Origin: Alphaproteobacteria bacterium
Lineage (GTDB): Bacteria; Pseudomonadota; Alphaproteobacteria; UBA2966
Assembly (NCBI GenBank): GCA_964291395.2
Contig: OZ219858.1
Location: 1 to 64,000, forward strand
Direction: 5' to 3'
Length of the DNA: 64,000 nt
The translations under genes were made by a program, and so were the position numbers. Every line of letters begins with the position of its first letter. Positions within the stretch are counted from its first letter, which is position 1. Below, in pieces: positions 4,441-51,066 of this stretch. The notes under the pieces were generated by a model. It did not search any database and had not been told where the DNA came from. It was given only the letters and a program-made list of their open reading frames with translations.

Positions 4441-4610
4441 GGACCTTCAGGACTCCCGGACGAGACGAAGATGATTCTCGAACAGAATGTCATAGCAGGA
4501 AACTCCGGCGCATGCTCCCGTTGCGACGGAATCCCGCTCGACGAGACGATTTTCGATCCTCGGATGCCCGAATATGGCATCTTGACACGGGGCCCGATGG
4601 AAACACTTCG

Positions 4611-8602: not shown

Positions 8603-8793
8603 GAGGCACCATCCAGTTCATCCGTTTATTTTATTCTCATCTTGTGGTTTTTCATAAACGTATTCTCAAAATTACCTCGTTCAGTGACTGAACGTTACAA
8701 TTCCCACGTTGCGGCAATCCGATCCCTTGCATAGCAATGGTTTCGCCGAAATGGGGTCGGATCTGAGATTCGATCCCAGGTCCGACACGGGGA
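8603..8793. promoter_or_regulatory. AT-richer divergent promoter region between the XRE regulator and the desaturase
   Basis: Noncoding, visibly A/T-enriched, between divergent starts; contains a repeat copy at 8753-8792. Confidence 0.5.
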
Positions 8794-9732
8794 ATGATCA
8801 TGACGCGTGCCAGGTGTCTGGGTGAGCAGCCGGCTTCGTTCTGGCGGCGCTGGGAAGCGCCCACCTGGCTCGTCGTCGTCGCGGTCTACGGTTGCTGGCT
8901 GGCGCTGACCTACCATGCGGCATCGCTGCCATGGTGGATCCTGGTGCCCGCCGGCGGTTGGGTGGTGTGCTGGCACGGCTCGCTGCAGCACGAGGCGGTG
9001 CACCGGCATCCGACCCGGTCCGACAGGATCAACGGCGTGATCGCCTGGCCACCCCTCGCGCTGTGGATGCCCTACGAGATCTACCGCGAAACCCACCTCG
9101 CCCACCATGGCTGTCCGGTCCTGACCGATCCACTCGAGGACACGGAATCGTTTTACATCCGGGAGGCGTCCTGGAAGCGCATGAGCCGCACACACAGGGC
9201 CGTCTTGTCCTTCAACCACACCCTGCTCGGCCGGTTGGCCATCGGCCCCGCGCTCGTCGCCGGCACGCACTGGCGGGCTGAATTGCGCCGCATCGCTTCC
9301 GGGGACTTCACCCACGCGGGCATCTGGATACGCCACGCCGTCGGCGTCGGCCTCGTTCTCGCCTGGGTTACGCTCGTTTGCGACCTGCCCACCTGGCAGT
9401 ATGCCGCTCTCTTCGCGTACCCCGGCTTGTCGCTCACGCTGTTGCGCTCGTATGCCGAGCATCAGCCGGCGAGCGACAGGAAGCAGCGCACCGCAATCGT
9501 CATCGGCGGCCCGTTGAGCGGTCTGCTTTACCTAAACAACAATCTCCACGTGGTCCACCACGCCCACCCCGGTCTCGCCTGGTACGCCATTCCGGATGAA
9601 TTTTGTGGAAGGCGCGACATCTACACGTCGCAAACGGGCGGGAACGTCTACGCCGGCTATCCGACGATCTTGCGCCGATTTCTACTTCACGCCCGCGACT
9701 ACCCGGTACACCCGGAACATCGGCCCGCGTGA
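8794..9732 (+). CDS. membrane fatty acid desaturase-family di-iron protein
   Basis: His boxes HEAVH, HLAHH and NNNLHVVHH; hydrophobic helices. Confidence 0.85.
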   Translation: MIMTRARCLGEQPASFWRRWEAPTWLVVVAVYGCWLALTYHAASLPWWILVPAGGWVVCWHGSLQHEAVHRHPTRSDRINGVIAWPPLALWMPYEIYRETHLAHHGCPVLTDPLEDTESFYIREASWKRMSRTHRAVLSFNHTLLGRLAIGPALVAGTHWRAELRRIASGDFTHAGIWIRHAVGVGLVLAWVTLVCDLPTWQYAALFAYPGLSLTLLRSYAEHQPASDRKQRTAIVIGGPLSGLLYLNNNLHVVHHAHPGLAWYAIPDEFCGRRDIYTSQTGGNVYAGYPTILRRFLLHARDYPVHPEHRPA

Positions 9733-9751
9733 GTCCCGAAGGAGGAATGCC

Positions 9752-10810
9752 ATGAGCGGGGAATCATCAGGCCCCGGCGAGGGTCTCCTTGAGCGCCTGT
9801 CGGAAGGTCCCGTCATCTGCGCCGAAGGCTACCTGTTCGAACTCGAACAACGGGGTTACGTCTCGGCCGGTGCCTACGTGCCGGAGGTAGTCCTCGAGCA
9901 TCCCGGGGCGATCGAGCAGCTCCACCGCGAGTTTCTGCGTGCGGGCTCGGACGTCATCGAGGCGTTTACCTACTACGGCCATCGCGAGAAGCTTCGCCTC
10001 GTCGGCAAGGAAGACGTGCTCGAAGACCTCAATCGTCACGCGGTTCGTATCGCCCGGAAGGTCGCGGACGAGGGGGACGCCCTGGTCGCCGGCAACGTGT
10101 GCAACACGAATGTCTTTCTCGAAGACAGCCAAAAAACCAAGGATGACGCCCGGGCGATGTTCGAGGAGCAGGTCGGCTGGGCCGTGGAGGAAGGCGTCGA
10201 CTGCATCATCGCAGAGACGTTCTCGTGGGCCGAGGAGGCGGAGATCGCCCTGGAAGTGATCAAGCAGACGGGATTACCGTCGGTGATCACCATGGCGATC
10301 CACCGCGAGCCAGAAACCTACGAAGGTCTCGCGCCCGAGGACTGCTGCAAGCGGCTAGAGGACGCGGGCGCGGATGTGGTGGGCCTCAACTGCATGCGGG
10401 GTCCCGGCACTATGCTGCCGTTGCTGCGCAAGATCCGCCGTGCGGTGAAATGCCACGTGGCGGCTCTCCCGGTCCCCTTTCGGACCAGCGAGGCGGAGCC
10501 CACCTTCCACCATCTGCACGATGCGAATTGCGGCTGTTTGCCCGAAGGTGGCACCTTCCCGACCGCGCTCGATCCCTTCACCTGCAACCGTTACGAGATC
10601 GCCGAGTTCGCCAAGGAAGCCGCGGACATCGGCGTGCATTACCTCGGCGTCTGCTGCGGTGCCAAGCCTCACCACATCCGCAGCATGGCGGAGGCTCTGG
10701 ACCGACGCCCCCCGGCCAGCAAATATTCGCCGGACATGTCCAAGCATGCCTACTTTGGCGACGCGAACCTGATCGGCGCGGAATACCGGAAACTCTCCAC
10801 CAGATTGTAA
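9752..10810 (+). CDS. betaine-homocysteine S-methyltransferase-like (homocysteine S-methyltransferase family)
   Basis: RBS AGGAGG; ELEQRGYV..PEVVLEHP..QLHREFLRAGS resembles mammalian BHMT; Zn ligands GLNC and GVCCG. Confidence 0.85.
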   Translation: MSGESSGPGEGLLERLSEGPVICAEGYLFELEQRGYVSAGAYVPEVVLEHPGAIEQLHREFLRAGSDVIEAFTYYGHREKLRLVGKEDVLEDLNRHAVRIARKVADEGDALVAGNVCNTNVFLEDSQKTKDDARAMFEEQVGWAVEEGVDCIIAETFSWAEEAEIALEVIKQTGLPSVITMAIHREPETYEGLAPEDCCKRLEDAGADVVGLNCMRGPGTMLPLLRKIRRAVKCHVAALPVPFRTSEAEPTFHHLHDANCGCLPEGGTFPTALDPFTCNRYEIAEFAKEAADIGVHYLGVCCGAKPHHIRSMAEALDRRPPASKYSPDMSKHAYFGDANLIGAEYRKLSTRL

Positions 10811-37675: not shown

Positions 37676-38182
37676 CTAGAAGAAGATGGTGATGCTGCGG
37701 GGCAGCAGCGACTGATCAAGAACGACCTTGCGCCTGACGATCCGGTAGCTACCATTCTCCGCCCGGAGCCGGTCTTCCCGACGGCCCACGAAGATCTTCT
37801 CCGTCCGCTCCAGCCGTGACTGATAGACCATCAGGTTGCAGCGCACGTCGAGTTCGCCGTCGCCGCCAGCGCCGGCCTCGTCGACCTCGACGTTGGAGAT
37901 GAAATAGCGCAGGCGCGAGGGCGGCTGCTCCGCATGCGCCAAGTGATGGCGCAGGCGCTGCACGCGCGCCGCCATGAAATCCTTGTCGTCATCGACGTGC
38001 GGCAGAAACTCCTCGCCGCGCTCGGAATCCTCCCGGTCCACCGTCGTTTCCCGGATGGGCATGAGGTAGCGCGTATCGTCAGTAAAGAGATCGAGCCACT
38101 CCTCGAAGCGGCCCTCCGCCAGCATGCGGACTTCCCGATAGAGGAACCGTTCAACCCTGTGCTGCAAGTCTGGGCTTGTCAT
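37676..38182 (-). CDS. aromatic ring-hydroxylating dioxygenase beta subunit
   Basis: FLYREVRML..WLDL..AEQPPSR..ISNV..GRRED..C-terminal ITIFF. Confidence 0.9.
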   Translation of the reverse strand: MTSPDLQHRVERFLYREVRMLAEGRFEEWLDLFTDDTRYLMPIRETTVDREDSERGEEFLPHVDDDKDFMAARVQRLRHHLAHAEQPPSRLRYFISNVEVDEAGAGGDGELDVRCNLMVYQSRLERTEKIFVGRREDRLRAENGSYRIVRRKVVLDQSLLPRSITIFF

Positions 38183-39509
38183 AGACCATCCGCGCTCCTT
38201 TGCCGCCATCCATCAGGTCCGCCCAGTGCCGGTAGAACAGCCTCTGATTCTCCTCGGATACGTAGGTCGAAATGTGCCCGGGCACGTCGTCGAACCCCTC
38301 GACCGGGTCCCGCTCGAGGGTCATCTGGTAGTTGAAGTCGAGGCGTTGGCCGATCACGCCGGCCGTCGACTGCGTGACCTGCTCGAAGTTCTCCGTGTCG
38401 TCCGGGCCGACGATGCCGGACGTCGACTGAAAACGCGTGAAATCAATCCGCGCCATATCCTTGACCACCTGCGGCGCGTCCCGGTCGGTAGCCGCCCACT
38501 GCCATACCTCGAGACGGCCCGGACCCTTCGGCGTCCACAAGTACAGGCCGATCGGCCGCAGCGTGCTGAAATCGTTGATCGAGAAGTTCGGAAACAGATT
38601 GCCGAACGGCAACGCGTGGACCTTGGCCTGGGCTTCCGAAAGCTTGAGCAGACGGGCGTGGCATTCCTCGACGTACTCCACGACCTCGGGACCCATGTCC
38701 GCGGCCAGCATACGGTCGACCTTGACCCGTTCGCCGGAGAGGGTGAACTGCGTGAAGCCGTGGCCGTTGTCCATGGCAATGTCGTAATATGTGAGCTTGC
38801 CCTCGCGGTAGATCAGGGGATTGGCGGGGTTGAGCTGCCGGATGTCCAGCGCGTAGGCCGATCCGTGGCTGTGGGCGAGATGGTATGAGTCGCCGACGAA
38901 GTTCTCCGAGGCGATCTTCCAGTTGCCGTCCACCGAGTAGCGCTGCTGCCCCGGGATCACCTCGATGCCCCCCAGCGACCGCTCGATCAGGATGTCCAGA
39001 TACCAGCGCGCGTTGCCGAGGTAGTCATCGAGACTCCCGGCGTCTTCGTCCCAGTTGCCGAACACGAACCCGCCGTAGCTGGCCAGCCGCGGCACCCGGT
39101 GCAGACCCCAGTCCTCCTTGTCGAGACCCCCGAAATAACCGTCCTCGAAGTTCGGCACCGCCTTGAGCGAACCATCGGCGCCGTAAGTCCAGCCGTGGAA
39201 AGGACAGGCGAACTGGCGCGCGTTGCCCGCGTCCGTGCGGCACACCCGCATGCCCCGGTGGCGGCAGGAGTTGAGAAAAGCCCGAACCTCGCCGTCCCCG
39301 CCCCGCCAGATCAGCACCGGGTCCTCGCCCATGTAGTTGGTGGTGTAGTCCCCGGGGGCGGGAATCTGACTCTCGTGCGCAAGATAGAGCCAGCATTTGG
39401 CGAAGATATTCTCCAACTCGGCACGGTAAACCTCCGGATCAAAGAAAATCCGGCGGCTGATCAGACCCTCCTCAACCCTCACCAGATCGCGAACACGGAT
39501 ATCCGACAT
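38151..39509 (-). CDS. Rieske ring-hydroxylating dioxygenase alpha subunit
   Basis: CRHRG..CPFHGW Rieske motif; ENFVGDSYH..H; DD.ENF. Confidence 0.92.
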   Translation of the reverse strand: MSDIRVRDLVRVEEGLISRRIFFDPEVYRAELENIFAKCWLYLAHESQIPAPGDYTTNYMGEDPVLIWRGGDGEVRAFLNSCRHRGMRVCRTDAGNARQFACPFHGWTYGADGSLKAVPNFEDGYFGGLDKEDWGLHRVPRLASYGGFVFGNWDEDAGSLDDYLGNARWYLDILIERSLGGIEVIPGQQRYSVDGNWKIASENFVGDSYHLAHSHGSAYALDIRQLNPANPLIYREGKLTYYDIAMDNGHGFTQFTLSGERVKVDRMLAADMGPEVVEYVEECHARLLKLSEAQAKVHALPFGNLFPNFSINDFSTLRPIGLYLWTPKGPGRLEVWQWAATDRDAPQVVKDMARIDFTRFQSTSGIVGPDDTENFEQVTQSTAGVIGQRLDFNYQMTLERDPVEGFDDVPGHISTYVSEENQRLFYRHWADLMDGGKGARMVYDKPRLAAQG

Positions 39510-39648
39510 GGTCACCTCCCTTCGCCCCATCATAGCCGCAACCGCCACGAGGGAAAACGCCCGCCTCCAACGCCAGCCGTCCAACCCCAGGCCCGACTCG
39601 ATTCATCATTTCGGGTGAAAACAGTACAATGAGGACCGGAGGGAAATC

Positions 39649-40980
39649 ATGAGTGCACTCTCGGCTCCAAGCGGTCAACCCCTGATCATCGACGATGCGG
39701 AGGCGGGCGTTTTCCGCGTCAATCGGGCCGCCTACGCCTCCGAAGAGGTGTTCGAGCGCGAGCAGCGCGCCCTCTACGATCACTGCTGGCTGCTGCTGGG
39801 ACATGAATCCGAGATCTCCCGACCGGGAGATTTCAAGACCCGCACCATAGCGCTGAGGCCGATCATCCTCTGCCGGGGCGACGACGGACGCGTTCGCGCG
39901 TTCATCAATTCCTGCCCCCATCGCGGCGCGGAGCTGTGTCGCGAAACCGAGGGCAACCGATCCATCTTCCACTGCATGTACCACTCGTGGACGTTCAGGA
40001 ACACGGGCGAGGTGCATACGGTGCGGGCCGAGGAGGGATACACCGGCGGATTCCGGCGTGAGGACTTCCACCTCAAGCAGGTGCCGCGCCTCGAGAGCTA
40101 CCGGGAATTCGTCTTCATCTGCTTCGATCCGGACGCGCCCGATCTGGTGACCTACCTCGGAAACGCGGCGCGTTATCTCGACTATCTCGCCGACCAGGGC
40201 GGCAACGGCATGGAAATCGTCGAGGGCACCCAGCTCTACGCCGCGCGGGCGAACTGGAAGCTGCAAATGGAGAACGTCATCGACTTCTACCATACGGTGC
40301 CGCTGCACACGTCCTACTTCCGCTTCCTCGAGAGCACCGGCGCCGACATCTCCGGCGGCGTGGGCGGCGCCGGCTATGACCTCGGCAACGGGCATTCCGC
40401 CGTGCATTTCAAGGCGGGCTGGGGCCGTCCCGTGGCCCGCTGGGAACCCCGCTGGGGCGAGGCGGAGAAACACCGGCTGGAAGCGCTCCGCACCGATATC
40501 GAGTCGCGCGTCGGAGCGCAGCGCGCCGAGATGATCTGCGACTGGGACCACAACATCCTGGTCTTTCCCAACTTGACCGTCGCCGACGTGGTGGCCCTGG
40601 TGGTGCGCGTGGTCAATCCGATCGCGCCCGGCATGATGGAGATCACCCAGTGGTGCCTGGCGCCCAAGGGCGAACCCGAGGAGGCCCGCTCGCGGCGGCT
40701 GCACGCCTTCAACACCTTCCTCGGTCCGGGCGGTTTCGCCACGCCCGACGACATCGAAGTCTTCGAAGGCTCGCAGCGCGCCTTCTGCGCCCACCGGGAA
40801 CTCGCCTGGTCCGATTTTTCACGAGGCTACCACGGGGAAGCGACCCGGCCCGAAACGGAGATCCGGTCCGACTACGAGGGTCAAATCCGGGCCTTCTACC
40901 GCGAATGGGCGGCGCGCATGGGAGCCATTGTCTCACATCGCGTGGACGGCGCCCTGCCCCGCGAGGCAGCCGCGGAATGA
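39649..40980 (+). CDS. Rieske ring-hydroxylating dioxygenase alpha subunit (second, divergent)
   Basis: CPHRG..CMYHSW; ENVIDFYH..H; FLGPGGFATPDD. Confidence 0.92.
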   Translation: MSALSAPSGQPLIIDDAEAGVFRVNRAAYASEEVFEREQRALYDHCWLLLGHESEISRPGDFKTRTIALRPIILCRGDDGRVRAFINSCPHRGAELCRETEGNRSIFHCMYHSWTFRNTGEVHTVRAEEGYTGGFRREDFHLKQVPRLESYREFVFICFDPDAPDLVTYLGNAARYLDYLADQGGNGMEIVEGTQLYAARANWKLQMENVIDFYHTVPLHTSYFRFLESTGADISGGVGGAGYDLGNGHSAVHFKAGWGRPVARWEPRWGEAEKHRLEALRTDIESRVGAQRAEMICDWDHNILVFPNLTVADVVALVVRVVNPIAPGMMEITQWCLAPKGEPEEARSRRLHAFNTFLGPGGFATPDDIEVFEGSQRAFCAHRELAWSDFSRGYHGEATRPETEIRSDYEGQIRAFYREWAARMGAIVSHRVDGALPREAAAE

Positions 40981-41483
40981 CGGCCGCGGCCGCCGGCACG
41001 CCAACCGTCACGGCATCCGATCTGGAGAGTTTCCTCTATCACGAAGCGGACCTGCTCGACTCCTGGCGCCTTGAGGATTGGCTGGAACTCTTCCTGCCCG
41101 ACGGCACCTACGAGGTGCCGACGACGGACGCGCCCGACGGCTCGCCCGAGTCGACCCTCCATTTCGTCGCCGACACGATGACCGTGCTGAAAGGCCGGGT
41201 GAACCGCCTGATGAGCCCGGATGGCTATGCCGAGAGCCCACACGCCCGAACCCGACGCTTCATCTCGAACGTCCGTCTGGTCGAGGCGGAGGGGGACATG
41301 GTGCGCCTCGCGGCGAACTTCATGATCGCCCGCATGAAAAAGGGCGCCCAGGACCTGTTCATCGGCCACTACGACCACCGGCTGAAGGTCGCGGGCAACG
41401 GCGAGCTTCGGTTCCAACGTCGGCGATCTATCCTCGATCTGGAAGCCCTGCGCCCGCAGCGATCGGTGAGCATCATCATCTAG
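40977..41483 (+). CDS. aromatic ring-hydroxylating dioxygenase beta subunit
   Basis: FLYHEADLLD..WLEL..ESPHARTRRFISNV; ATGA-coupled to the alpha subunit. Confidence 0.9.
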   Translation: MTAAAAGTPTVTASDLESFLYHEADLLDSWRLEDWLELFLPDGTYEVPTTDAPDGSPESTLHFVADTMTVLKGRVNRLMSPDGYAESPHARTRRFISNVRLVEAEGDMVRLAANFMIARMKKGAQDLFIGHYDHRLKVAGNGELRFQRRRSILDLEALRPQRSVSIII

Positions 41484-41564
41484 GGCGGCCTGGGCTCGAC
41501 CGGAGCCGACCCGCCACTCCTTGTCGCTCACGTCAGCGGATTCATACGCCGCGTCGCGACCTCG

Positions 41565-41595
41565 GGAGCGGTTCGGGCCTGGCCCGGACCGCTCC
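41565..41595. repeat. GC-rich intergenic hairpin (possible repeat-family member or terminator)
   Basis: GGAGCGGTTCGGGCC-T-GGCCCGGACCGCTCC. Confidence 0.5.
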
Positions 41596-41644
41596 GGATC
41601 CATTCGCTTGCCCGGGCACATGGGCTCCTGTACTCACGGATGCC

Positions 41645-42880
41645 ATGTCAGCTAACACCGCTGCCACGTCCGCCTTCCACGCACCCACGCACCCTTACCG
41701 CTGGGCCATGCTGGCCGGCGTCTGGCTGATCTATTTCTCGTTCGGAATCTTCGTCGCGTCGATGGCGCCGCTCGTGGCGCCGATCACGGCTGATCTCGAG
41801 ATTTCCCATGGCGCCATGGGCACCGTGCTGGGCGCCTGGCCTCTGGTCTACATCGCCTCGTCGATCCCCGCGGGCGCCCTGATCGACCGCATGGGTCCGC
41901 GCCGCTCCATCATGCTGTGCACGGTGCTGATCACGCTGTCGGGCATTCTGCGCGGCATCGCCGACGACCACCTGTCGATGTTCCTGGCAGTGGCCGTGTT
42001 CGGACTCGGGGGACCGTTGATCTCGATCGGCGCACCGAAAGTGATGAGCCTTTGGTTCGAGGGCAAGGAGCGGGGCCTTGCCATGGGGATCTACATCTCG
42101 GGGCCGGCGGTCGGCAACATCACGTCGCTGGCACTCACCAACAGCGTCATGATGCCGTTCTATGCGGGAGATTGGCGCGCCGTCCTGTTCACTTATGCAG
42201 GCGTTGCCGTGCTCTGCGGCGGGCTGTGGGTGCTCATCTCGGCCCACCCGGCGAGTCGCACGATGGAGCGGCAGATCGCGGGAGAGCCCAAGCGTTCTCA
42301 GATTCAGGTGTTCGGAGAGCTTCTGTCGGAGCCCGTCGTGCGTCTCATCCTGGTGATGAGCGTCGGCATGTTCATCTTCAACCACGGACTCAACAACTGG
42401 CTGCCGGAAATCCTGCGTACCGGGGGAATGGATGCCGCCACCGCCGGTTACTGGGCGTCGATCCCGACGGCCGTCGGCGTCTTCGCGGCGCTGTCGATAC
42501 CCCGCTTCGCGACGGAAGACCGGCGCCTTTCGGTTCTGGGCCTCCTGTTCCTCGCGGCCGGTGCCGCCACGATGCTGCTGCACCTCTCCGCCGGGCCGTT
42601 GCTGGCGGTTGGACTCGTATGCCAGGGCATTGCGCGCGGCGCCATGATGGCCGTCTCCATTCTCGTGCTCGTGGAATCGCCCGGCGTGGACTCGCGAAAC
42701 TCCGGCGCCGCCGGAGGCCTGTTCTTTTCCGCGGCCGAGGTGGGCGGTGTCCTCGGTCCGGTCCTGGTGGGAGCGATCCATGACCTGACCGGGGGCTTCG
42801 CCGCCTCTCTCTACATGATGACCGCCATCTGCGCCGTTCTGCTCCTTCTCCTCTGCCGGCTACGGTCGCTGACGCGGTAG
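41645..42880 (+). CDS. MFS transporter (CynX/NimT-like)
   Basis: GALIDRMGPRR, WFEGKERG, NWLPEIL; about 12 TM segments. Confidence 0.85.
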   Translation: MSANTAATSAFHAPTHPYRWAMLAGVWLIYFSFGIFVASMAPLVAPITADLEISHGAMGTVLGAWPLVYIASSIPAGALIDRMGPRRSIMLCTVLITLSGILRGIADDHLSMFLAVAVFGLGGPLISIGAPKVMSLWFEGKERGLAMGIYISGPAVGNITSLALTNSVMMPFYAGDWRAVLFTYAGVAVLCGGLWVLISAHPASRTMERQIAGEPKRSQIQVFGELLSEPVVRLILVMSVGMFIFNHGLNNWLPEILRTGGMDAATAGYWASIPTAVGVFAALSIPRFATEDRRLSVLGLLFLAAGAATMLLHLSAGPLLAVGLVCQGIARGAMMAVSILVLVESPGVDSRNSGAAGGLFFSAAEVGGVLGPVLVGAIHDLTGGFAASLYMMTAICAVLLLLLCRLRSLTR

Positions 42881-43096
42881 TCACGACATGGCACCATCGC
42901 CCCTTCGGGACTCGCCGGCGAAATGCCCCGCAACAGATGCATCGTCGACCGCAGGAACGGGGACGGCGCGACGTTCCTTATTACGGCGATTTACAAGTTC
43001 GCGGATTGCGCCTATTGAGGCCCCGCACGCACGGCACGGCTCCGTGCTCCCGACGACACCCGCACTCGACGGAATGGCTCCGTCCTGGGGCACAAC

Positions 43097-44326
43097 ATGA
43101 CCGATTCAGCGACGGCGGGCGCCGCCTTCAGGCGGCGGGTCATAGTCATCATCGCCGCGGCCAGCGTCATCGCGGCGCTGTCCTTCGGCATCCGGTCGTC
43201 GTTCGGTATCTTCCTGCAACCCGTCTCGGCCGACCTCGGCTGGGGCCGCGAGATCTTCGCATTCTCCATCGCGCTCTCGTCCGTCCTGTGGGGCGCGGCC
43301 CAGCCCTTCGCCGGCATGCTAGCCGACCGCTTCGGCTCGGGCAGGGTCCTTGCCGCAGGCGCCCTGATGTACGCCGCGGGCATCGCGCTCATGGCATGGT
43401 CCTCGACCCCGCTGGCCGCTCACCTCACGATCGGCGTCCTCGTCGGACTGGGCAACGCCGGCTGCGGGTTGTGGATCGTATACGCGGCGGTGGCCAGGGC
43501 TGCGGCCCCGGAACGCCGCACCCTGGCGGTAGGCATCGTGTCGGCCGCCGGATCCTTCGGCCAGTTCGCCGTGGTGCCGATCGGGCAGGCCTTCCTCGAC
43601 ACCTACGGCTGGCAGACCGCGTTCGTCCTGCTGGGGATCGCCGCGCTCGCGATGCTGCCGATGGCCGGCGCCATCACCGGCCGCGCCGCGGCATCGGCCG
43701 TCGCTCCACAGAGGTTCCGGGCCGCGCTGACGGAGGCCGCGCGCCATCGCGGCTACCTTCTGCTCAATGCCGGGTTCTTCGTCTGCGGATTCCAGGTCAT
43801 CTTCATCAGCACCCACCTGCCGGCCTACGTGGCGGACCGCGGCCTGCCGGCGGAAATAGGCGCCTGGACGCTGGCCCTTGTCGGCCTGGTAAACATCGTC
43901 GGCTCCATCGTCAGCGGGATGCTGGGCGACCGCTTCAGCAAGAAGAGTCTCCTCACGCTGCTGTACCTCGGCCGGGCCGTCGTGATCGCGGCCTTCGTCC
44001 TGTCACCCCCGTCCATTGCCGGCACACTGACGTTCGGCGTGGTCATGGGTCTCGTGTGGTTCAGCGTCATACCGCTGACGACGGCCCTGGTCGCTCAGAT
44101 CTTCGGTTCGCAATACCTGGGGACTCTTTCCGGCATCGTGTTCCTCAGCCATCAGACCGGCGCCTTCCTCGGCGCGTGGCTGGGCGGCCGCCTGTTCGAT
44201 GCGACGGGCTCCTACGATGTCACATGGTGGATCGCGGTCGCCCTCGGCCTCGCCGCGGCGGCCCTTCACTATCCCATCGACGAACGGCCGCTCAGGCGCG
44301 CGGCTCCCGCAGAAGGCGCCGCCTGA
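43097..44326 (+). CDS. MFS transporter; its 3' end is the apparent integration target
   Basis: GMLADRFGSGR, GFFVCGFQ, SHQTGAFLGAWLGG. Confidence 0.9.
   Translation: MTDSATAGAAFRRRVIVIIAAASVIAALSFGIRSSFGIFLQPVSADLGWGREIFAFSIALSSVLWGAAQPFAGMLADRFGSGRVLAAGALMYAAGIALMAWSSTPLAAHLTIGVLVGLGNAGCGLWIVYAAVARAAAPERRTLAVGIVSAAGSFGQFAVVPIGQAFLDTYGWQTAFVLLGIAALAMLPMAGAITGRAAASAVAPQRFRAALTEAARHRGYLLLNAGFFVCGFQVIFISTHLPAYVADRGLPAEIGAWTLALVGLVNIVGSIVSGMLGDRFSKKSLLTLLYLGRAVVIAAFVLSPPSIAGTLTFGVVMGLVWFSVIPLTTALVAQIFGSQYLGTLSGIVFLSHQTGAFLGAWLGGRLFDATGSYDVTWWIAVALGLAAAALHYPIDERPLRRAAPAEGAA
44184..44310 (+). repeat. left copy of a 127-bp direct repeat (attL-like)
   Basis: Matches 52939-53065; last 74 bp (44237-44310) identical. 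Confidence 0.93.
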
Positions 44327-44373
44327 CCGGCCACGACGGAGTCCAGGACACTGCAGTAATTTCGGAGACCGTG

Positions 44374-45276
44374 TTACGACTCATCGACCTCCGCAATCAG
44401 CCATTCCCGAAATGCGACCGCTTTCGGTGCTGTAAACGCGGCTTCCGGCCCCACGAAATAATACGCAAGATCGAGCGGCATCGTAGTCGGGAATGGACAT
44501 ACCAGCCGGCCAGCCGCTATATCGTCGGCCGCCAAGGATACGCGTCCCAATGCGACACCCAGCCCGTCGACCGCGGCCTGCAGCGCGAAAACAGACTGAG
44601 CGAACCGTAGTCCTCGCGTGGGATCGACCCCCTCTACCTCGGCCGCGAGCAACCACATCGTCCAATCCGGGCTCACATCCGCGAAATCATACGTATCGTC
44701 GTGAATAAGCATGTGGGAACGCAAATCCGCAGGCGCCTTGAGCGGCGATTTCCCTTCAAGCAAGCGCGGACTGCACATGGGCGTTACCGCCTCGGATAGC
44801 AATTTTTCGACTCTGAGCATCGGGTAATTGCCGTCACCGAACCGAACGGCGAGATCGATGTCCGATGTCGAGAAGTCAACCAATTCAATCGTCGTGGAAA
44901 GCCTTACGTCGACATCGGGGTGGGCACCGAGAAAACGATCCAGCCGCGGGATCAACCATTTTGCGGCGAAGGACGGTGCGGTACTGATGGTGAGGACGTT
45001 TTTCGTTTTCTCCTTCCGCGCTTCATCCAGGGCGGCGGCAATTCGCATGCATCCTTCGCGGATACCGGGCAGGAACGCCTGCCCGGCGTCGGTAAGACGC
45101 ACGGCACGATTGAAGCGTAGGAACAGCGGCACGCCCAATAATTCTTCCAGGGACTTGATCCGCTGGCTGATGGCAGCCGGCGTGACTTTCAGTTCCTGAC
45201 CCGCGCGCTGAAAGCTCAGGTGCCGCGCACAAGCTTCGAACGCCTGCAACTGTTCAGTCGAGGGCAGACGTACCAT
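44374..45276 (-). CDS. LysR family regulator, GcvA-like
   Basis: LQAFEACARHLSF..AAISQRIKSLEE, SFAAKWLIPRL, GLGVALG. Confidence 0.9.
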   Translation of the reverse strand: MVRLPSTEQLQAFEACARHLSFQRAGQELKVTPAAISQRIKSLEELLGVPLFLRFNRAVRLTDAGQAFLPGIREGCMRIAAALDEARKEKTKNVLTISTAPSFAAKWLIPRLDRFLGAHPDVDVRLSTTIELVDFSTSDIDLAVRFGDGNYPMLRVEKLLSEAVTPMCSPRLLEGKSPLKAPADLRSHMLIHDDTYDFADVSPDWTMWLLAAEVEGVDPTRGLRFAQSVFALQAAVDGLGVALGRVSLAADDIAAGRLVCPFPTTMPLDLAYYFVGPEAAFTAPKAVAFREWLIAEVDES

Positions 45277-45561
45277 GGTATGCGCCGATAGAGCTTCTTT
45301 GTCCGAAATAATAACCGGGCGGATAACAGAGTATCGTACAAACGGATCACGCCAAAGCGTTCGTCCCGACTCAGAAGCTTGGGAGGACGGGACGCTCGCA
45401 TGCTGGACATCGATCACGGAATCCAGCCCGGATACCTCGCGGCGACCCGTCTAATGAGACTGATCTCAGTGTCCTTTTACGCGGATCTCGACTCTCGGAT
45501 CAGCCGGCAGGCATTTGTGCTCACCGGTACTCTGCACTCGGTGAAATTCGAGGCGCACTAC

Positions 45562-46164
45562 TCAAAAGCGGTTCTTTATCCTTCGTGCCATTGTTTCCGG
45601 CGGGGTGCCGAAGGCAAAGTGAGTGAGATAGCGACCATCCGGCGCCATCAGGAACGTGACGGTGGAATGGTCGAGCACGTAGTCCCCATCTGTGAGGACC
45701 GTTTTTCTGTAGTACGTGCGAAACGCCTTCGCAGCCGTCGCCACCTGGTCTGCCGTGCCCGTCAAACCGGCAATTTGTGGATGGAAGTTCGCGACGTACT
45801 CGGCAAGGACCTGAGGCGAGTCCCGTTCCGGATCCAAGGTTATGAACAGCGGTTGGATTTTCCGGGCGTCGACCCCGAGCCTGTCCAGTGTCATCGAGAT
45901 TTCCAGCAACGTGGTCGGGCAGATGTCGGGACAGGAAGTGTAGCCAAACGAGATGAGCAGATACTTCCCCCGGTAGAACTCATCGGTCACGGCCCGTCCG
46001 CTGTGGTCGATGAGTTCGAACCGTCCGCCAATGTGGAAAACCTTAACGCTTCCGGTGGTTGAAACCTTCGATTCGGCGTATACGCCGGGTCCACCGGTCG
46101 AAAGGGTCGTCAGCGCAAAGAAGGCGACGGTCGCCAAAGCGGTCTTACTTGTCGATCTCTTCAA
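45562..46164 (-). CDS. SCO1/SenC family copper-binding protein
   Basis: FGYTSCPDICP (CxxxC), DPERD, LDHS; TTG start after GAGGAG; signal/anchor N-terminus. Confidence 0.9.
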   Translation of the reverse strand: MKRSTSKTALATVAFFALTTLSTGGPGVYAESKVSTTGSVKVFHIGGRFELIDHSGRAVTDEFYRGKYLLISFGYTSCPDICPTTLLEISMTLDRLGVDARKIQPLFITLDPERDSPQVLAEYVANFHPQIAGLTGTADQVATAAKAFRTYYRKTVLTDGDYVLDHSTVTFLMAPDGRYLTHFAFGTPPETMARRIKNRF

Positions 46165-46213
46165 GAAAGACTCCTCGACCCGACTTTCGGTGCAGCCTCG
46201 AACGGCAATCGAT

Positions 46214-47458
46214 TCAGTGGCAGTAGGCGACCGCGCCAGCCATATATAGGCCCCAGGGCTCCTTACCCACATCGTCAATCACCTTCACGAGACGTTGCTT
46301 CGGAACGTCGATCACCGCAACTTGAGCGGTCTTGCTGAGCGCGATGTAGACCTTGGTACCATCGGGTGTCGTCACGCCAATCTCGGGCGACGAGGGCAAC
46401 GGAATTTCCGCGACCACCTCGGGCTCGGTCAGGTCGACGACCAACGCCTTGTTCTCGGCCCGACTCGGGATCACCGCCGTGGTCTCGAACCAACCCGTGT
46501 TGACCCCCGTCATGTCCCGTGCGCCAGGGATGCGGGCCATCTCCTCCAGCGTCCGCATGGAGATGACAGAGATCGTCCCGTCGCCGTTGTTGAGAGAAAT
46601 CAACTGGAGGCTGTCCGCCGTCGCGTAGGTACGAAACGGCACGTCCCCTAGAACCAGGGTCTTCACCTTCTCCTGCGTGCGCAGGTCGATGACGGTCAAC
46701 GTGTCGCTGGCTCCGTGCGAGGCAAATCCCCTGGATCCGAAGGTGGTGCGGCTGAGGTTGATGACGCCCGGGATCAGCCGCTGCGTTCCCGGATCGACTA
46801 TCCCCATTCTGTCACCGGCGGTGTACGCTCCGATCCCGCCCGATGCCGGCCGCCGGTCCGTTGGGCCGATCGGAATCTCCCCGACCACCTCGCCACTGGC
46901 GACGTCGATGACGCTTACCTCCGCCGACCCTAGATTGCCGACATAAAGCAGCTTCCCGTCGGGACCGAAGACCATGGTGTCCGGACCGTGCAGGCCGGGC
47001 ACCGTTCTCAGCACGCGGCCGTGCCGTAGCGAGACGAGAAAGACTTTTCCGGCCTCGACGCTGCTGGCCGCCACGATCTCGCCGTCGCGGTCGATCTCCA
47101 TACGATCCGGATCGTCCCCGAGCTCGATCCTACGGACCACCGCGAGGGTTTCCAAGTCTACCACTGCGATGCTGTCGTCCACGGTGTTGCTGGCAAGCAG
47201 GAAACCCAGCGGCCTGGATGTACTCGCATCCGTCGGAAGCAGAAGCTGATTGGGAATCTGGTCGAGCCGGAGCGTGGTCTCGAGTTCGTCGGACTCGGTG
47301 TCGATAATCGCCACCTCGCTGGTCGCGCGGTCGGGCACGAATACATAGCGCCGCACGTCGTCGAGCGCCGCCACCGGGTGAATGACCGCGAGCAGAAGCC
47401 CGGCCATCGCGCCGACCCGAACCGCGACGGTCGTCGGCGGACGGGCTCTGCCTAGCAC
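46214..47458 (-). CDS. YVTN/YncE-type beta-propeller protein, probably exported
   Basis: Repeated ..VSVID/..TPDGTKVYI/..GPDGKLLYVGN blades; hydrophobic N-terminus; ends in YCH; GTG 2 nt after the chaperonin stop. Confidence 0.82.
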   Translation of the reverse strand: MLGRARPPTTVAVRVGAMAGLLLAVIHPVAALDDVRRYVFVPDRATSEVAIIDTESDELETTLRLDQIPNQLLLPTDASTSRPLGFLLASNTVDDSIAVVDLETLAVVRRIELGDDPDRMEIDRDGEIVAASSVEAGKVFLVSLRHGRVLRTVPGLHGPDTMVFGPDGKLLYVGNLGSAEVSVIDVASGEVVGEIPIGPTDRRPASGGIGAYTAGDRMGIVDPGTQRLIPGVINLSRTTFGSRGFASHGASDTLTVIDLRTQEKVKTLVLGDVPFRTYATADSLQLISLNNGDGTISVISMRTLEEMARIPGARDMTGVNTGWFETTAVIPSRAENKALVVDLTEPEVVAEIPLPSSPEIGVTTPDGTKVYIALSKTAQVAVIDVPKQRLVKVIDDVGKEPWGLYMAGAVAYCH

Positions 47459-47460
47459 CG

Positions 47461-49059
47461 TCAGCCCCCGCTCTCCGCGGCTGGGGCATCTCCGATCAGG
47501 ATGTCGTCGATACGCAGGATCGTGACGGCGACCTCGGTCGCCGAGGCGAGCGCCTGGGTCTTTATCTCCAGGGGCTCGAGAATCCCGGCTTCCCAGGCGT
47601 CGACGAGCTGCCCCGACACGACGTCGAATCCGCACCAGGTGTCGTGCCGCTCATGACGGGCTTCCACCAAGCTCAACTGGTCGATCGCATCTGCACCGGA
47701 GCTCTCTATGAGCGTCCGCGGCACGACGGTCATGGCATCGGCGAACGCTTCGGTGACGAGACGCTCCTTCCCTGTCAGCCCCGCGCGTGCGCGCTCCCTC
47801 AACCGCCGGGTCAGCTCGACCTCGACAGCCCCGGCCCCGGCCACCACCTTGCCACGCGTCAGCGCGCTGCCGATATCACCCACCGCATCTTCGAGGGCCC
47901 GCCGGGCCTCTTCCGCGGCATGCGCCGTGCTCCCCTTCACGAGTAGCGTCACCGCCTTCGGATCCTCGCAATCCTCCACGTAAATGAACGTCGACTTTCC
48001 GAGGGTTTCCTCGTGAATCCTGCCCGCTCGGCCGAGATGGGCGGCGTCCAGCATGTGCGGCGACGAGACGATCCGGGCTCCGGTCGCCTTGGCGAGCCGC
48101 ACCAGATCGCCGCGGGGGACCCGGCGGACTGCGAAGACCCCGGCCTGGCTCAGGAAGTCGTCCGCCGGCTCCTCGATATTCTGCTGGCAGAACAAAACAT
48201 TGCAGCCCGAGGCAACGATCCGTTCGACCATCTCGGCCAGATTCTTCCGCTCCTGCTCCACGAAGGCCTGCATTTGACGGGGGTCGCTGATGTGAATCTG
48301 GGTGGCGATCTCCGGGTCCTTGATCTCGATCGGCTGATCGATCAGCCCCACGTTCGCCCTTTCGACGCGCGTCGGCATGGACGGGTGCGCGCGCTCCCGC
48401 GCCAGCAGCACGCCCTTCATCAGCGTGCTGGCCTCGGTCGGCTCACCGACCATGCGCTCTAGCTTCACTCCGTCGTCGTCGATCACCGCGCGCTTGCCGT
48501 CGTACCGGATCACCTTTCTCACCGCCTGGATGGCGAGCGATGCCAGCGTTTCCTTAGCCGATTCGACGGCCTTTCCGGTCATTGCGGTATGGGCGACCCG
48601 CGTGATGATCTCGTCGTCGTCGGGACCGACCGCCTCGCCGATGTCCTCGAGGATCTCCTGGGCCATGCGTTCGGCGGTGCGAAAACCTCGGGCGATGACG
48701 GCTGGATGAAGGTCCATCTCCAGCAGGTCTTCAGCCTTGCGCAACACCTCGCCGGCGAGCACGATGACGGTCGTCGTGCCGTCTCCGACTTTGTCCTGCT
48801 GCGTGACGGCCGCCTCGATGGCCAGCTTGGCGGCGGGATGCCTGACCCGCATTTCGTTGAGGAGCGTGAAGCCGTCGTTCGTCACGACGATGTCGCCCAG
48901 GCCGTCGACGACCATCTTGTCCATGCCCTTGGGCCCGAGCGTGGAGCGCACGGTTTGGGCAAGGGCATGGATGACCGAGATGTTCGACCGGTGGGCGTCC
49001 CTGCCGGTCGTCCTTTCCATGTCCTCGGATACTCCGAGCGTGTCCCGCCTGTTCACCAT
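47461..49059 (-). CDS. group II chaperonin (thermosome/CCT-like) subunit
   Basis: GRDA..NI, RSTLGPKGMDKM, VTNDG, HPAAK, GDGTTT, AMTGK, lid-like segment IHISDPRQMQAFVEQE, NVLFCQ, VPRTL, ILRIDD; 532 aa. Confidence 0.93.
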   Translation of the reverse strand: MVNRRDTLGVSEDMERTTGRDAHRSNISVIHALAQTVRSTLGPKGMDKMVVDGLGDIVVTNDGFTLLNEMRVRHPAAKLAIEAAVTQQDKVGDGTTTVIVLAGEVLRKAEDLLEMDLHPAVIARGFRTAERMAQEILEDIGEAVGPDDDEIITRVAHTAMTGKAVESAKETLASLAIQAVRKVIRYDGKRAVIDDDGVKLERMVGEPTEASTLMKGVLLARERAHPSMPTRVERANVGLIDQPIEIKDPEIATQIHISDPRQMQAFVEQERKNLAEMVERIVASGCNVLFCQQNIEEPADDFLSQAGVFAVRRVPRGDLVRLAKATGARIVSSPHMLDAAHLGRAGRIHEETLGKSTFIYVEDCEDPKAVTLLVKGSTAHAAEEARRALEDAVGDIGSALTRGKVVAGAGAVEVELTRRLRERARAGLTGKERLVTEAFADAMTVVPRTLIESSGADAIDQLSLVEARHERHDTWCGFDVVSGQLVDAWEAGILEPLEIKTQALASATEVAVTILRIDDILIGDAPAAESGG

Positions 49060-49233
49060 GCCGATAGCCCTCCCTCACCGGCGCGCCCACTACCGGCCTG
49101 GCAAGGAGCCTCCCAAAATCCCGGATTGCCGGGGATTGCGAGCGGCTCCTTCCTCAGGCTCCGCACCGTGCGTGGGCGTCCGTCCCCACGGCCCTCGCGA
49201 AAGGAGGGGTGGCTTCCGTCGCCGGCCCGTCGG

Positions 49234-50559
49234 CTAGATCCGGAACGCCTTCATTGCCTCTCCCCAGGCGCGTTTGCGGAAGGCATCGGACGTCACGTCC
49301 ACCGTGCCCTCCGTCATGACGCCGGTGATGGGCTCGAAGGGTTCCGTGAGCTCCGGCGCGTGATGCGTGTCGATCAGTTCGTCGAGCTTGAACTTCTTCT
49401 TGCCCAAACCGATCTTCATCATCGTATCGTTCCACAGCGAGTCGACCGACGCGTAGTTGAGCCCGTAGTGCCAACGGGCCCGGAAGTACTCCGACACCCA
49501 TTCCACGGGGGCGGGCGTACCGGAAACCTGGGCGGCGATCTCGACCGTCTCCCCCCAGTTGTCCCGCATGAACTCGCAGGCCTTCTTGTGGCCCTCGATC
49601 ACCGCGAGGATCATCTCGTCGGGAAGACCCGGCCGAGCCGCCAGCCCAACGCACTGCACGTAGGTCTGGGTGTCCCGGCCGTCGGCGCTCATCATGTGGT
49701 CGCCGCCGTCGAGGCAGTGGCCGATCACCTTGGCCTCCTTGAAGTATTCCGGATACGAGTCGTACTGCTCGCAGATGGTCTGCGCGTCGACCTGGCCCGT
49801 GACCAGGGCCGTGGCCACCTCGGGTGGCGGCAGGTAGTGGATCTTGAAGTCCTTCTCCGGATCGAGCCCGTGGTCCATGATGGTCCGGAAGCACGCGGCG
49901 TGCGTGATCGTCCCGGGCACGAGCGTGGATATCCGGACGGGATCTCCGTCCGCCTTCCGCTTGGCCGCATACTCGAAGAACTTAGGGAAATCCGTGAGGC
50001 CCTGATCGTAGAGTTCCTGCCGGACGGCCCAGCCGCCGTGGCCGACCATGCCGCCCACGATGTGCTTCGAGGGGATGCCCTTCTGGGCCGCGACCCCGGG
50101 CGTGTTGCTGCCGACGTAGGCGAAGTCAATCTCTTCCGCGATGAACGCTTCCATCACCTGCGGACCGGAGGGCGCGCCGAGGAACTTGGTATCCCAGCCC
50201 ATGCTCTCGAAGATCCCCTTCTTCTCGAGAATGTAGCCCAGGAGCTCACAATCGAGAGTATTGATGTAGCCGTATCGTATAGTGCCTTTCGTGGCACCCT
50301 TCGTGGACGTCCCGGCTTTCGCGCCGGTCGGGGTCGCCGCGATCGAACTCGCAAGGGCGAACGCCGTGCCGCCCGCCGCCGCGGCTTGACCGAACTCGCG
50401 ACGCGTGAGACTACGGGCACGCACGCGGTCCAACTCTGCCCTGTGTTCGTGATACTCCCGGTGGGTCTTCTGAAACGCCTTGGGCGTTATGTCCGGATCC
50501 ATGACCAAGTCCCAGAAGCCCGTCTCTCCGGTCCCATCCTGGTTGCGCTTGGTTGTCAT
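49234..50559 (-). CDS. NitT/TauT-family ABC substrate-binding protein with twin-arginine signal
   Basis: RBS AAGGAG; LTRREF followed by an Ala-rich helix; SGPQVMEAFIAEEIDFAYVG typical of SsuA/NrtA-like SBPs. Confidence 0.8.
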   Translation of the reverse strand: MTTKRNQDGTGETGFWDLVMDPDITPKAFQKTHREYHEHRAELDRVRARSLTRREFGQAAAAGGTAFALASSIAATPTGAKAGTSTKGATKGTIRYGYINTLDCELLGYILEKKGIFESMGWDTKFLGAPSGPQVMEAFIAEEIDFAYVGSNTPGVAAQKGIPSKHIVGGMVGHGGWAVRQELYDQGLTDFPKFFEYAAKRKADGDPVRISTLVPGTITHAACFRTIMDHGLDPEKDFKIHYLPPPEVATALVTGQVDAQTICEQYDSYPEYFKEAKVIGHCLDGGDHMMSADGRDTQTYVQCVGLAARPGLPDEMILAVIEGHKKACEFMRDNWGETVEIAAQVSGTPAPVEWVSEYFRARWHYGLNYASVDSLWNDTMMKIGLGKKKFKLDELIDTHHAPELTEPFEPITGVMTEGTVDVTSDAFRKRAWGEAMKAFRI

Positions 50560-50624
50560 CTTCTTGCTCCTTCGCCGCCGTTGCTGTCGCGCCTGCATTC
50601 AGTGTGATCCGACGGTAACGGCGC

Positions 50625-50861
50625 CTATTCCGCCGCTTGCGGCTTTCGTTTGATGGTCAAGCCTTCGGGTTCATCGCCGTATTCCGGCAGATGCTCCCCC
50701 GCCTTGTAATGATTGAAGCCCGGATGTTCTCGCACGATGACGTAGACGTACTCCCGTGGCGCCTCGAAATGGTCCACGACCGCATTCGTGAGGGCTTCCT
50801 GAAGCGCATGAATGTCTTCTCTGGAGCGGCCCTCCCGCACATCAATCTGAATGATCGGCAT
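50625..50861 (-). CDS. 4-oxalocrotonate tautomerase-superfamily protein, CaaD alpha-subunit-like
   Basis: N-terminal Pro1 (MPIIQIDVREGRS) and GEHLPEY; 78 aa. Confidence 0.85.
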   Translation of the reverse strand: MPIIQIDVREGRSREDIHALQEALTNAVVDHFEAPREYVYVIVREHPGFNHYKAGEHLPEYGDEPEGLTIKRKPQAAE

Positions 50862-51003
50862 AACTTTACTCCCGCGTGTTCACTTCAGCTTCGCGGCCCG
50901 TCACATTAACCCGCACGACCCGGCCGCCCGAGGAAACGCACGAGCCGATGAGTAGAAGTATCGGCCTGCACCGGGATCCTGGCAAACGAATAGTGACAGC
51001 GTC

Positions 51004-51026
51004 TCGGATAAACCCGGTTTATCCGA
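51004..51026. promoter_or_regulatory. perfect inverted repeat in an intra-operon spacer
   Basis: TCGGATAAAC-CCG-GTTTATCCGA. Confidence 0.45.
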
Positions 51027-51066
51027 AGAATTGGGACTTGCCCGCCCTCGCGCCATTTTCACGAAC

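Follow-up and report, generated by a model that had tools for sequence, protein, structure and literature searches.

In the available text of three papers (PMC5635000, PMC12696368, PMC5220055), group II chaperonins are assigned to archaea and eukaryotes, and group III, divergent and encoded in dnaK operons, is the only thermosome-like kind described from bacteria. What, then, is a chaperonin gene of archaeal appearance doing inside an ATP-binding cassette (ABC) transporter operon of an alphaproteobacterium? The gene lies on the minus strand at positions 47461 to 49059 of a 64,000-nucleotide stretch of DNA (hereafter the window), which is the beginning of a 1.33-Mb contig (C3; OZ219858.1) of a sponge-associated bacterium (assembly GCA_964291395.2), and encodes a protein of 532 residues, P0001. 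We read it, with a probability of roughly 0.55, as an archaeal thermosome that was taken up by bacteria and now acts as a chaperonin dedicated to a rare five-gene cassette.

P0001 is a group II chaperonin by every sequence and structural feature tested. Its open reading frame is intact, a Shine-Dalgarno-like GGGAGGG lies 8 nucleotides upstream of the ATG, and the translation contains GRDAHRSNI, TLGPKGMDKM, TNDG, GDGTTT and ILRIDD. The Pfam model Cpn60_TCP1 matched residues 33 to 521 with 521.1 bits, and the NCBIfam models thermosome_alpha and thermosome_beta scored 618.7 and 609 bits against cut-offs of 450 and 400; an older subfamily model, TIGR02339, gave 594.4 bits, under its cut-off of 671.1. 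The CCT models of NCBIfam reached 265 to 392 bits, far under their cut-offs. P0001 likewise fails as a group I chaperonin, with 20 to 91 bits from seven NCBIfam GroEL models whose cut-offs run from 352 to 1041, and the true groES-groEL pairs of the genome are located elsewhere, on contig C1. When sequences of the PDB were ranked against P0001, a chaperonin of Methanococcus maripaludis came first (about 498 bits), followed by the Thermococcus KS-1 thermosome (485 to 489 bits), with crenarchaeal thermosomes (400 to 443 bits) and CCT subunits (at most 324 bits) lower down.

The structural comparison gave the same answer. An AlphaFold model of P0001 (24 sequences; mean predicted local distance difference test, pLDDT, 86.4) matched closed thermosome structures with template-modelling (TM) scores of 0.87 to 0.93 at 46 to 48% identity, the match to the archaeal Mm-cpn and Thermococcus KS-1 chaperonins being collinear over the full length, with one internal gap column against the Thermococcus protein over about 531 residues. 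The lid segment (residues 235 to 290) is ungapped against either the Thermococcus or the Methanocaldococcus thermosome and contains a long protrusion helix at residues 260 to 283 in the model; alignments of P0001 to the lidless Mm-cpn chains of the PDB fall into two parts, interrupted at residue 246. The ATP site (T60-N61-D62-G63 and V91-G92-D93-G94-T95-T96) is invariant, D391 falls within a conserved E-D-A motif, and K163 aligns without a loop gap with residue 165 of the Thermococcus thermosome (TAITGK). K163, NDG and GDGTT are invariant in all 24 aligned sequences, both those of the P0001 clade described below and the archaeal rows. The initial annotation had reported a 532-residue thermosome with the listed motifs, a lid-like segment and an archaeal-type group II identity; each of these points holds, and the strand is minus.

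The genes around P0001 are those of a transporter. Upstream on the same strand lie genes for a BPD_transp_1 permease (51822 to 52757; its start may be at residue 23, MASTTT..., near 52691, as in the metagenome protein P0136), an ABC_tran ATPase of 260 residues (51067 to 51849) and a 441-residue protein resembling substrate-binding proteins (SBPs), identified by Pfam NMT1_2 and by fold matches of the SsuA/NrtA type (49234 to 50559). Between the last two sits a gene of the 4-oxalocrotonate tautomerase family (50625 to 50861, minus strand; 78 residues; PF01361, 47.8 bits). Downstream, 2 nucleotides beyond the chaperonin stop codon, a GTG codon starts the gene of a YVTN/YncE-type seven-bladed beta-propeller of 414 residues that is predicted to be secreted (46214 to 47458), and this is followed by a copper-chaperone-type SCO1/SenC gene (45562 to 46164) of uncertain start (TTG at 46164 or 46137, or an upstream position at 46278), both on the minus strand. 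These Pfam assignments bear out the transport-operon setting proposed in the initial annotation. By composition (NMT1-type SBP, BPD_transp_1 and ABC_tran), the cassette is predicted to be an importer of the NitT/TauT type.

The arrangement is not peculiar to this genome. A homologue search with P0001 returned 18 clusters (P0002 to P0019) at 93 to 54% identity, all from metagenome sources except P0015, and archaeal hits ranked under them, starting at 53%. The motifs CQQNIEEPAD, AVRRVP and PRTLIES belong to this clade and are absent from five aligned archaeal rows, the Met/Gly-rich C-terminal tail of which is in turn absent from the clade. We call the clusters bacterial on the gene context of P0007 (the thermosome of metagenome locus L087) and of the thermosomes of loci L088 and L089, which are not matched to clusters, and on equal longest-contig sizes for six clusters, P0007 included; for the other clusters, the basal P0018 among them, the label is tentative. 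A metagenome scan with a clade-specific segment of 80 residues found four loci, three of the clade and one (L090) of archaeal type. On the 10.6-kb contig L087, genes for SBP (4290 to 5618), permease, ATPase, thermosome (7365 to 8933) and propeller (8942 to 10102) share one strand, and L088 and L089 carry the series ATPase-thermosome-propeller. Thermosome and propeller genes are adjacent in all four loci (the window, L087, L088 and L089), with a gap of 8 nucleotides in L087 and L088. Identity to the window proteins is 61% for the SBP, 55% for the permease and 67% for the ATPase (L087), 59 to 60% for the thermosome and 28% for the propeller. The L087 contig is taken to be bacterial because its SBP is 88% identical to P0134, a protein named from Afipia carboxidovorans OM5. 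In the roughly 460 bp between its propeller gene and the contig end there is no open reading frame of at least 120 codons, so no SCO1 gene was seen there. Clade members in contexts other than the cassette were not seen.

The SBP family is itself small: 5.8 billion proteins yielded only 13 clusters at E ≤ 1e-20, and sampled genomes gave homologues in 0 of 400 from the phylum and 0 of 400 from the class. Six of the 13 clusters match a thermosome-clade cluster in the size of the longest contig (9854, 14113, 7350, 15703, 11390 and 11501) and are therefore taken to represent the same contigs, carrying both SBP and thermosome. A separate observation concerns P0136, a 555-residue metagenome protein in which permease residues 23 to 163 (79% identity) are fused directly to the propeller (89% identical), the junction corresponding to approximately 47459 to 52270 of the window. 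From this fusion, one deletion in a close relative appears to have taken the remainder of the permease together with ATPase, tautomerase, SBP and thermosome, while the propeller stayed; such a deletion would fit a functional unit of ABC transporter and thermosome.

The cassette also recurs in sponge samples. The 7.3-kb stretch from 45500 to 52800 was found in 20 listed sequencing runs from 15 studies, of which 12 runs (9 studies), containing 0.46 to 0.66 of the sampled words, are labelled sponge metagenome. Contigs of four runs (X2, X4, X10 and the RNA run X16) were aligned to it. In X4, an independent sponge metagenome, a single contig of 7083 nucleotides covers 45500 to 51364, from SCO1 to the ATPase gene, with 112 differences; the propeller-thermosome junction is also bridged by contigs of X2 (45500 to 47910) and X10 (47379 to 47542). 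The X2 and X4 contigs differ from the window at about 1 to 2% of positions; from this and from the 12 sponge runs, a close relative with the island seems widespread in sponges. The sponge metatranscriptome X16 (0.34 of the words) yielded contigs, each with 0 to 4 differences from the window, on SCO1 and the propeller (46012 to 46226), the propeller (46612 to 47055), the thermosome (47817 to 48166), the thermosome-SBP spacer with the end of the SBP (49075 to 49303), the SBP, the SBP leader and tautomerase, and the ATPase. Seven of 30 bins had no cover, and some short skip joints had sides of 20 to 31 letters; nothing is concluded from either.

What would a chaperonin do in such a cassette? We propose that P0001 would assemble in the cytoplasm into an ATP-driven folding cage with a lid, and that its client would be a protein of the same cassette and not the proteome at large. 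The initial annotation had likewise suggested a client-specific chaperone; this fits a tightly coupled cassette in four loci and a small SBP family, whilst the ring assembly, the dedication to the cassette and the identity of the client are predictions. As the likeliest client we tentatively name the SBP-like protein of about 48 kDa, an assignment that we would still call doubtful. It is singled out because a substrate of the twin-arginine translocation (Tat) pathway must fold in the cytoplasm, and because, of the cassette families, that of the SBP is the most closely linked to the thermosome clade in its occurrence. The protein is presumably small enough for a chaperonin cage. Its folding, and perhaps the insertion of a metal or cofactor, would have to be completed in the cytoplasm ahead of export, and the conserved stretch ahead of its twin arginines could be a recognition handle for the cage.

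The SBP family is well conserved, with a mean column identity of 70% over 14 sequences. Its twin-arginine motif reads S/T-R-R-E-F (R53, R54 and E55 are the same in all 14) and follows a conserved N-terminal stretch, unusually long at about 50 residues, in which W16, M20, D21 and F29 are invariant; a weakly hydrophobic region and an A-x-A site (AKA) come before the mature part. From this motif and the TatC encoded in the genome (242.6 bits), the protein is predicted to be exported as a Tat substrate. Further invariant residues are C104, C263, H281, C282, M289, M290, C303, H324 and H364. Foldseek placed SsuA first (E 2e-11), then Thi5, CmpA, NrtC, TauA and PqqT, and the NrtA fold was also matched; by sequence, solved chains gave E values of at least 0.003, and identity to the structural matches was at most 20%. 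The AlphaFold model is mediocre, with a mean pLDDT of 64.9. The cassette thus shares with the known NitT/TauT importers (SsuABC, TauABC, NrtABCD/CmpABCD and PqqT) an SBP of NMT1_2 fold, a BPD_transp_1 permease and an ABC_tran ATPase, but differs in an SBP family that is sharply separate, with 13 clusters and remote sequence, and in the invariant Cys, His and Met residues and long pre-Tat region of that SBP. In four of the 14 members (P0126, P0130, P0132 and P0133), the SBP has an extra C-terminal stretch of about 27 residues (alignment columns 456 to 482), which ends in Cys followed by two or three residues (CGLV, CAI, CGFV or CSIV).

A number of observations weigh against the dedicated-cassette reading, those on the role standing here and those on the origin with the tree below. 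The genome already owns two groESL operons and dnaK, and the need for a further chaperonin is not obvious. Binding, folding and ring assembly by P0001 are predictions. Gene context was seen directly in four loci, the six further cases being inferred from equal contig sizes. The SBP cluster P0134, which bears the Afipia carboxidovorans OM5 name, lies on a 3.75-Mb contig; none of the clade thermosome clusters has a contig of that kind or, P0015 apart, an NCBI source, so that an intact SBP may exist without the thermosome. The window and L087 have their genes in different orders, and the island encloses a tautomerase gene that is probably older. The window propeller is 45 to 52% identical to stand-alone alphaproteobacterial propellers and 28 to 29% identical to the L087 propeller; one such relative, in genome G222, has unrelated neighbours, namely an autotransporter and an S41 peptidase, and the propeller is thus not confined to the cassette. 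The deletion seen in P0136 indicates that the transporter-thermosome unit is dispensable in some lineages. Finally, the X16 RNA library may contain DNA, and its contigs show neither strand nor a single transcript.

Several of these points could be accommodated if P0001 were a general or stress chaperonin, a passenger on the island that serves the host proteome, for example in the sponge habitat, with its place in the operon carrying no meaning. The island is recent, one SBP homologue may lack a thermosome, and group III chaperonins expressed alone are reported to shield E. coli from heat shock in the available part of one paper (PMC5220055). Against this, the same neighbours recur at 55 to 67% identity in other sources, with 2 to 8 nucleotides to the next gene; thermosome and SBP clusters share contig sizes in six cases, with no other context seen; and a single deletion in P0136 took out the permease 3' half along with ATPase, SBP and thermosome. 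We consider a general chaperonin unlikely, although it is the best placed of the rival explanations.

The next candidate is the propeller, which might be the dedicated client by analogy with the eukaryotic chaperonin. Eukaryotic CCT folds WD40 propellers, complexes of CCT with G-beta are among the structural matches of the P0001 model (TM about 0.89), and the thermosome and propeller genes adjoin, at 2 to 8 nucleotides, in all four loci. The propellers of the window and of L087, however, carry Sec-type signal peptides without twin arginines; a Sec substrate should be exported unfolded, so that folding would occur in the periplasm, beyond a cytoplasmic cage, and the propeller is accordingly a weaker client candidate than the SBP. 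Propellers of this family are numerous (487 proteins at E ≤ 1e-10 among the scored candidates) and can be unaccompanied by a thermosome, as in G222, and the two cassette propellers share only 28 to 29% identity. A propeller client is therefore, in our view, improbable. The comparison with CCT/TRiC as a whole runs in both directions: both are group II cages, and a seven-bladed propeller is here encoded directly downstream, but CCT subunits reach no more than 324 bits and 34 to 35% identity, one subunit gene is present here versus eight, and the propeller, having a Sec signal peptide, is unlikely to be a cytoplasmic client.

A different place for the propeller was suggested by structure prediction. 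Predicted complexes of the mature SBP with the mature propeller gave a median score of 0.45, with 0.00 for the best of three controls, a result classed as 'weak support'; the runs shared at least 77% of contacts, with a partner pLDDT of at least 84. In the benchmark, 58 of 80 solved complexes passed the mark, as did 2 of 110 mismatched pairs; passes at 0.60 or less came from only 7 of the 80 solved complexes but from both of the mismatches. A pass of this kind is wrong in most cases, unless the pair was probable to begin with. We regard a periplasmic SBP-propeller pair as a lead. The propeller ends in an invariant Cys-His in 11 of 11 aligned members (46214 to 46219 of the window). Joining these elements to the dedicated-cassette reading gives a fuller scenario, in which a thermosome captured from DPANN archaea would be a single-client, pre-export cage for the Tat-exported SBP, which would then work in the periplasm with the Cys-His-tailed propeller; this combination is more doubtful still than the SBP assignment by itself. 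Members of the propeller family inside and outside the cassette share an NTGWFETTA-like motif, and the terminal Cys-His could be a metal ligand pair; SCO1 is the next gene in this genome.

Where did the thermosome come from? The cassette lies in an 8.6-kb island (44339 to 52938), delimited by comparison with the congener G001, in which the block of major facilitator superfamily (MFS) genes abuts the block that starts at window position 52939. On the minus strand the order of the island is permease, ATPase, tautomerase, SBP, thermosome, propeller, SCO1 and LysR, the last being a LysR-type regulator gene at the island edge (44374 to 45417), recognised by its domain match and the congener comparison. 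By DNA comparison the island is absent from five of five congeners, in which the flanking MFS gene adjoins the gene starting near 53118. Among related genomes, the thermosome was found in 0 of 60 (46 genera; E ≤ 1e-40), and propeller and SBP each in 0 of 30 (E ≤ 1e-20). On this evidence the island appears to have been recently gained. The congener G005, which has no cassette, has the tautomerase gene at the same spot; the tautomerase gene thus probably predates the island and splits it in two.

For the phylogeny, 59 rows (19 of the clade, 38 archaeal and the genome's own two GroELs) were analysed under LG+C20+F+G4 with posterior mean site frequencies (PMSF) and a quick search. The archaeal rows comprised 31 of at least 80 loci, chosen for taxonomic spread, and 7 of 102 proteins (P0020 to P0121); the loci, all of them archaeal, came from a genome scan that matched on the universal GPKGMDKM motif and has no bearing on whether the clade is absent from bacterial species-representative genomes. 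The rows do not extend to TACK, Asgard, CCT or group III sequences. All 19 clade rows form a monophyletic group (Shimodaira-Hasegawa-like approximate likelihood ratio test, SH-aLRT, 100), which joins 15 rows of Woesearchaeota/Nanoarchaeota type, at SH-aLRT 98 with GroEL and 99 without. In the unrooted tree, from which GroEL is omitted, the clade sits inside the Woesearchaeota/Nanoarchaeota group, and constraining the 15 archaeal rows to form a clade without the bacterial rows cost 14.2 log-likelihood units (approximately unbiased test, p-AU 0.036). Acquisition of the thermosome by bacteria from archaea is supported, and the donor was probably a DPANN lineage resembling Woesearchaeota or Nanoarchaeota.

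The tree also holds the points on origin announced above. The group of 15 rows constrained in the AU test was named after the tree had been seen. With GroEL placed on the bacterial stem and all 38 archaeal rows on one side, the likelihood was 11.9 units better than that of the quick free tree (p-AU 0.74), and rooting by GroEL cannot show the direction of transfer. It is on this placement that a further alternative draws, namely that the clade is an old bacterial lineage sister to the archaeal thermosomes, a deep branch like that proposed for group III: the arrangement that keeps the 38 archaeal rows together is not rejected and has the higher likelihood. The GroEL branch, however, is long, with about 5 changes per column, and attaches to the ingroup stem that is itself the longest, as long-branch attraction would lead one to expect. 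Without the outgroup the clade nests inside the Woesearchaeota/Nanoarchaeota group, with the AU result given above against keeping that group whole. Moreover, the scores of P0001 fall from euryarchaeal (485 to 498 bits) through crenarchaeal sequences (400 to 443) to CCT (at most 324), and the bacterial distribution is very patchy. We judge an old bacterial lineage to be very improbable. The interdomain transfer proposed in the initial annotation is supported, then, by the absence from 60 relatives and five congeners and by the nesting in the unrooted tree, while rooting by GroEL is no guide to its direction.

The thermosome-like chaperonins already known from bacteria belong to group III, and the initial annotation had allowed that P0001 might be an ordinary member of it. 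As far as the available text of two papers goes, group III genes sit in the dnaK operon, with one exception, and the group III lid carries deletions (PMC5635000; PMC12696368, 2025). The nucleotide-sensing loop of group III is described as shorter by six residues and as carrying Arg155 in place of Lys165, the residue named for group II (PMC5635000, An et al. 2017); the supplementary list of that paper holds 195 group III members. P0001 resembles the group III protein of Carboxydothermus hydrogenoformans (Ch-CPN) in being thermosome-like, in its built-in lid and in coming from a bacterium that also has GroEL and GroES, but has none of these hallmarks: it lies outside a dnaK operon, its full-length loop keeps the lysine and its lid is undeleted. 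Because the full lid and the loop lysine are kept, P0001 is not a group III protein, and its being an ordinary one, for all that it is a thermosome-like gene in a GroEL-owning bacterium, has next to no probability, the more so as the 60 top-ranked PDB sequences, down to 275 bits, include no group III structure, presuming that the PDB copy holds the Ch-CPN entries.

The host genome is uniform in composition. It consists of three contigs of 2.64, 0.20 and 1.33 Mb with GC fractions of 0.640, 0.637 and 0.638. GC at third codon positions (GC3) is 0.844 for the thermosome, compared with 0.857 for the SBP, 0.817 for the permease, 0.878 for the MFS gene, and 0.837 and 0.838 for two Rieske genes. Of its chaperones, two groES-groEL pairs lie on C1, and dnaK, the only full HSP70 match, lies on C3 (873228 to 875015), about 824 kb from the thermosome gene. 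Neither prefoldin family was matched anywhere in the genome, and both were matched in four of four archaeal control genomes. The absence of groES, dnaK and prefoldin from the neighbourhood, noted initially, is thus as described. The locus is not an assembly chimera, since GC3 matches that of its neighbours and an independent sponge-metagenome contig (X4) spans both junctions; set beside these, and beside the uniform composition, the bacterial ribosome-binding sites, the dnaK on the same 1.33-Mb contig and the further metagenome contigs across the junctions, a CheckM-type contamination of 9% leaves a chimera or archaeal contamination, which the initial annotation had also considered, with negligible probability. 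C3 carries the only full-length dnaK of the genome, and for this reason behaves as a chromid or second chromosome and not as a dispensable plasmid. A search of plasmids with the thermosome (tblastn) gave haloarchaeal thermosomes only (33 records, at most 43% identity), and megablast of plasmids with the locus gave only a 41-base match in an ABC motif.

Set against the archaeal thermosomes, with which it shares the 46 to 48% identity, the GDGTTT and NDG motifs, the loop lysine and the helical-protrusion lid, P0001 is distinguished by its host, a bacterium without prefoldin, by the clade motifs and missing tail already described, and by a gene that sits in an ABC-transporter cassette and is not free-standing. 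A second comparison is with the chaperones of Tat signal peptides. TorD/DmsD/NapD-type proteins are small, ATP-independent binders of Tat signal peptides, and resemble the proposed system as cytoplasmic factors encoded beside a Tat substrate whose twin arginines follow a long conserved region, a likeness that concerns the possible mode only; they have no kinship in sequence or fold to a chaperonin. The chaperonin cage, if assembled like its relatives, would presumably be an ATPase of roughly 1-MDa type.

What is new here is that a known machine occurs in another domain of hosts and in a genetic setting both new and fixed. A true group II chaperonin has a bacterial clade to itself, is a constant member of a five-gene cassette and turns up among the contigs of a sponge metatranscriptome. 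A literature search, supplementary files excluded (such as the group III list of PMC5635000), found no published account of a bacterial group II clade or of a thermosome in an ABC-transporter operon. Its role, too, is probably new, and narrow. As the thermosome is a fixed part of a small and rare transporter cassette, bacteria may have taken it up for one dedicated job. Should a single cassette protein prove to be the client, this would be a rare natural group II system with one genetically defined client and no prefoldin, and would help with the long-standing question of how group II cages choose and fold their substrates. On the fuller scenario given above, it would represent a new class of maturation factor for Tat substrates and, among group II chaperonins, the first whose natural client is defined in a simple genetic background. 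The locus also offers a clean case of the transfer of a large molecular machine from archaea to bacteria followed by specialisation.

As to what the transporter might carry, two suggestions were considered. A role in copper handling is a lead: SCO1 is next door, the SBP has its invariant His, Cys and Met residues and the propeller its Cys-His end. The lead draws on adjacency and residues only, and SCO1 was not seen after the L087 propeller. Uptake of pyrroloquinoline quinone (PQQ) was dropped as unsupported, the PqqT fold match of the SBP occurring only at ranks 38 to 41 and YncE, whose NCBIfam model is named a 'PQQ-dependent catabolism-associated' propeller, being a weak hit of the propeller. 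The pqqC model had no match in the genome, yet it matched no control genome either and is uninformative. PQQ_2 matches fall in three places of the genome, all within one frame of 481 residues, which we take to be BamB-like.

On either side of the island (38151 to 44326 and 54851 to 56537) the window carries genes of aromatic-catabolism type that are conserved in congeners, including two Rieske oxygenase large subunits, two MFS transporters, a glutathione S-transferase and a LigB-type extradiol dioxygenase. Rfam at gathering scores found nothing in the window, and a scan for promoters and terminators gave sites no more numerous than in shuffled sequence.

Just outside the island, on the minus strand at 53118 to 54665, two open reading frames form one frame with a single in-frame TGA at 53994 to 53996 (...KVWPI*LAPAGLGL...). 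The frame has no match in Pfam, NCBIfam or PDB sequences, and the 70 nucleotides from the TGA, checked for a selenocysteine insertion sequence (SECIS), fold no better than shuffled ones (z 0.32). In the congener G005 (L094, 1903 to 3519, minus strand) the TGA recurs at the same position and is followed by 35 codons conserved at the protein level. A SelB gene is present in the genome (425.6 bits against a cut-off of 242), and we regard the frame as a candidate selenoprotein gene.

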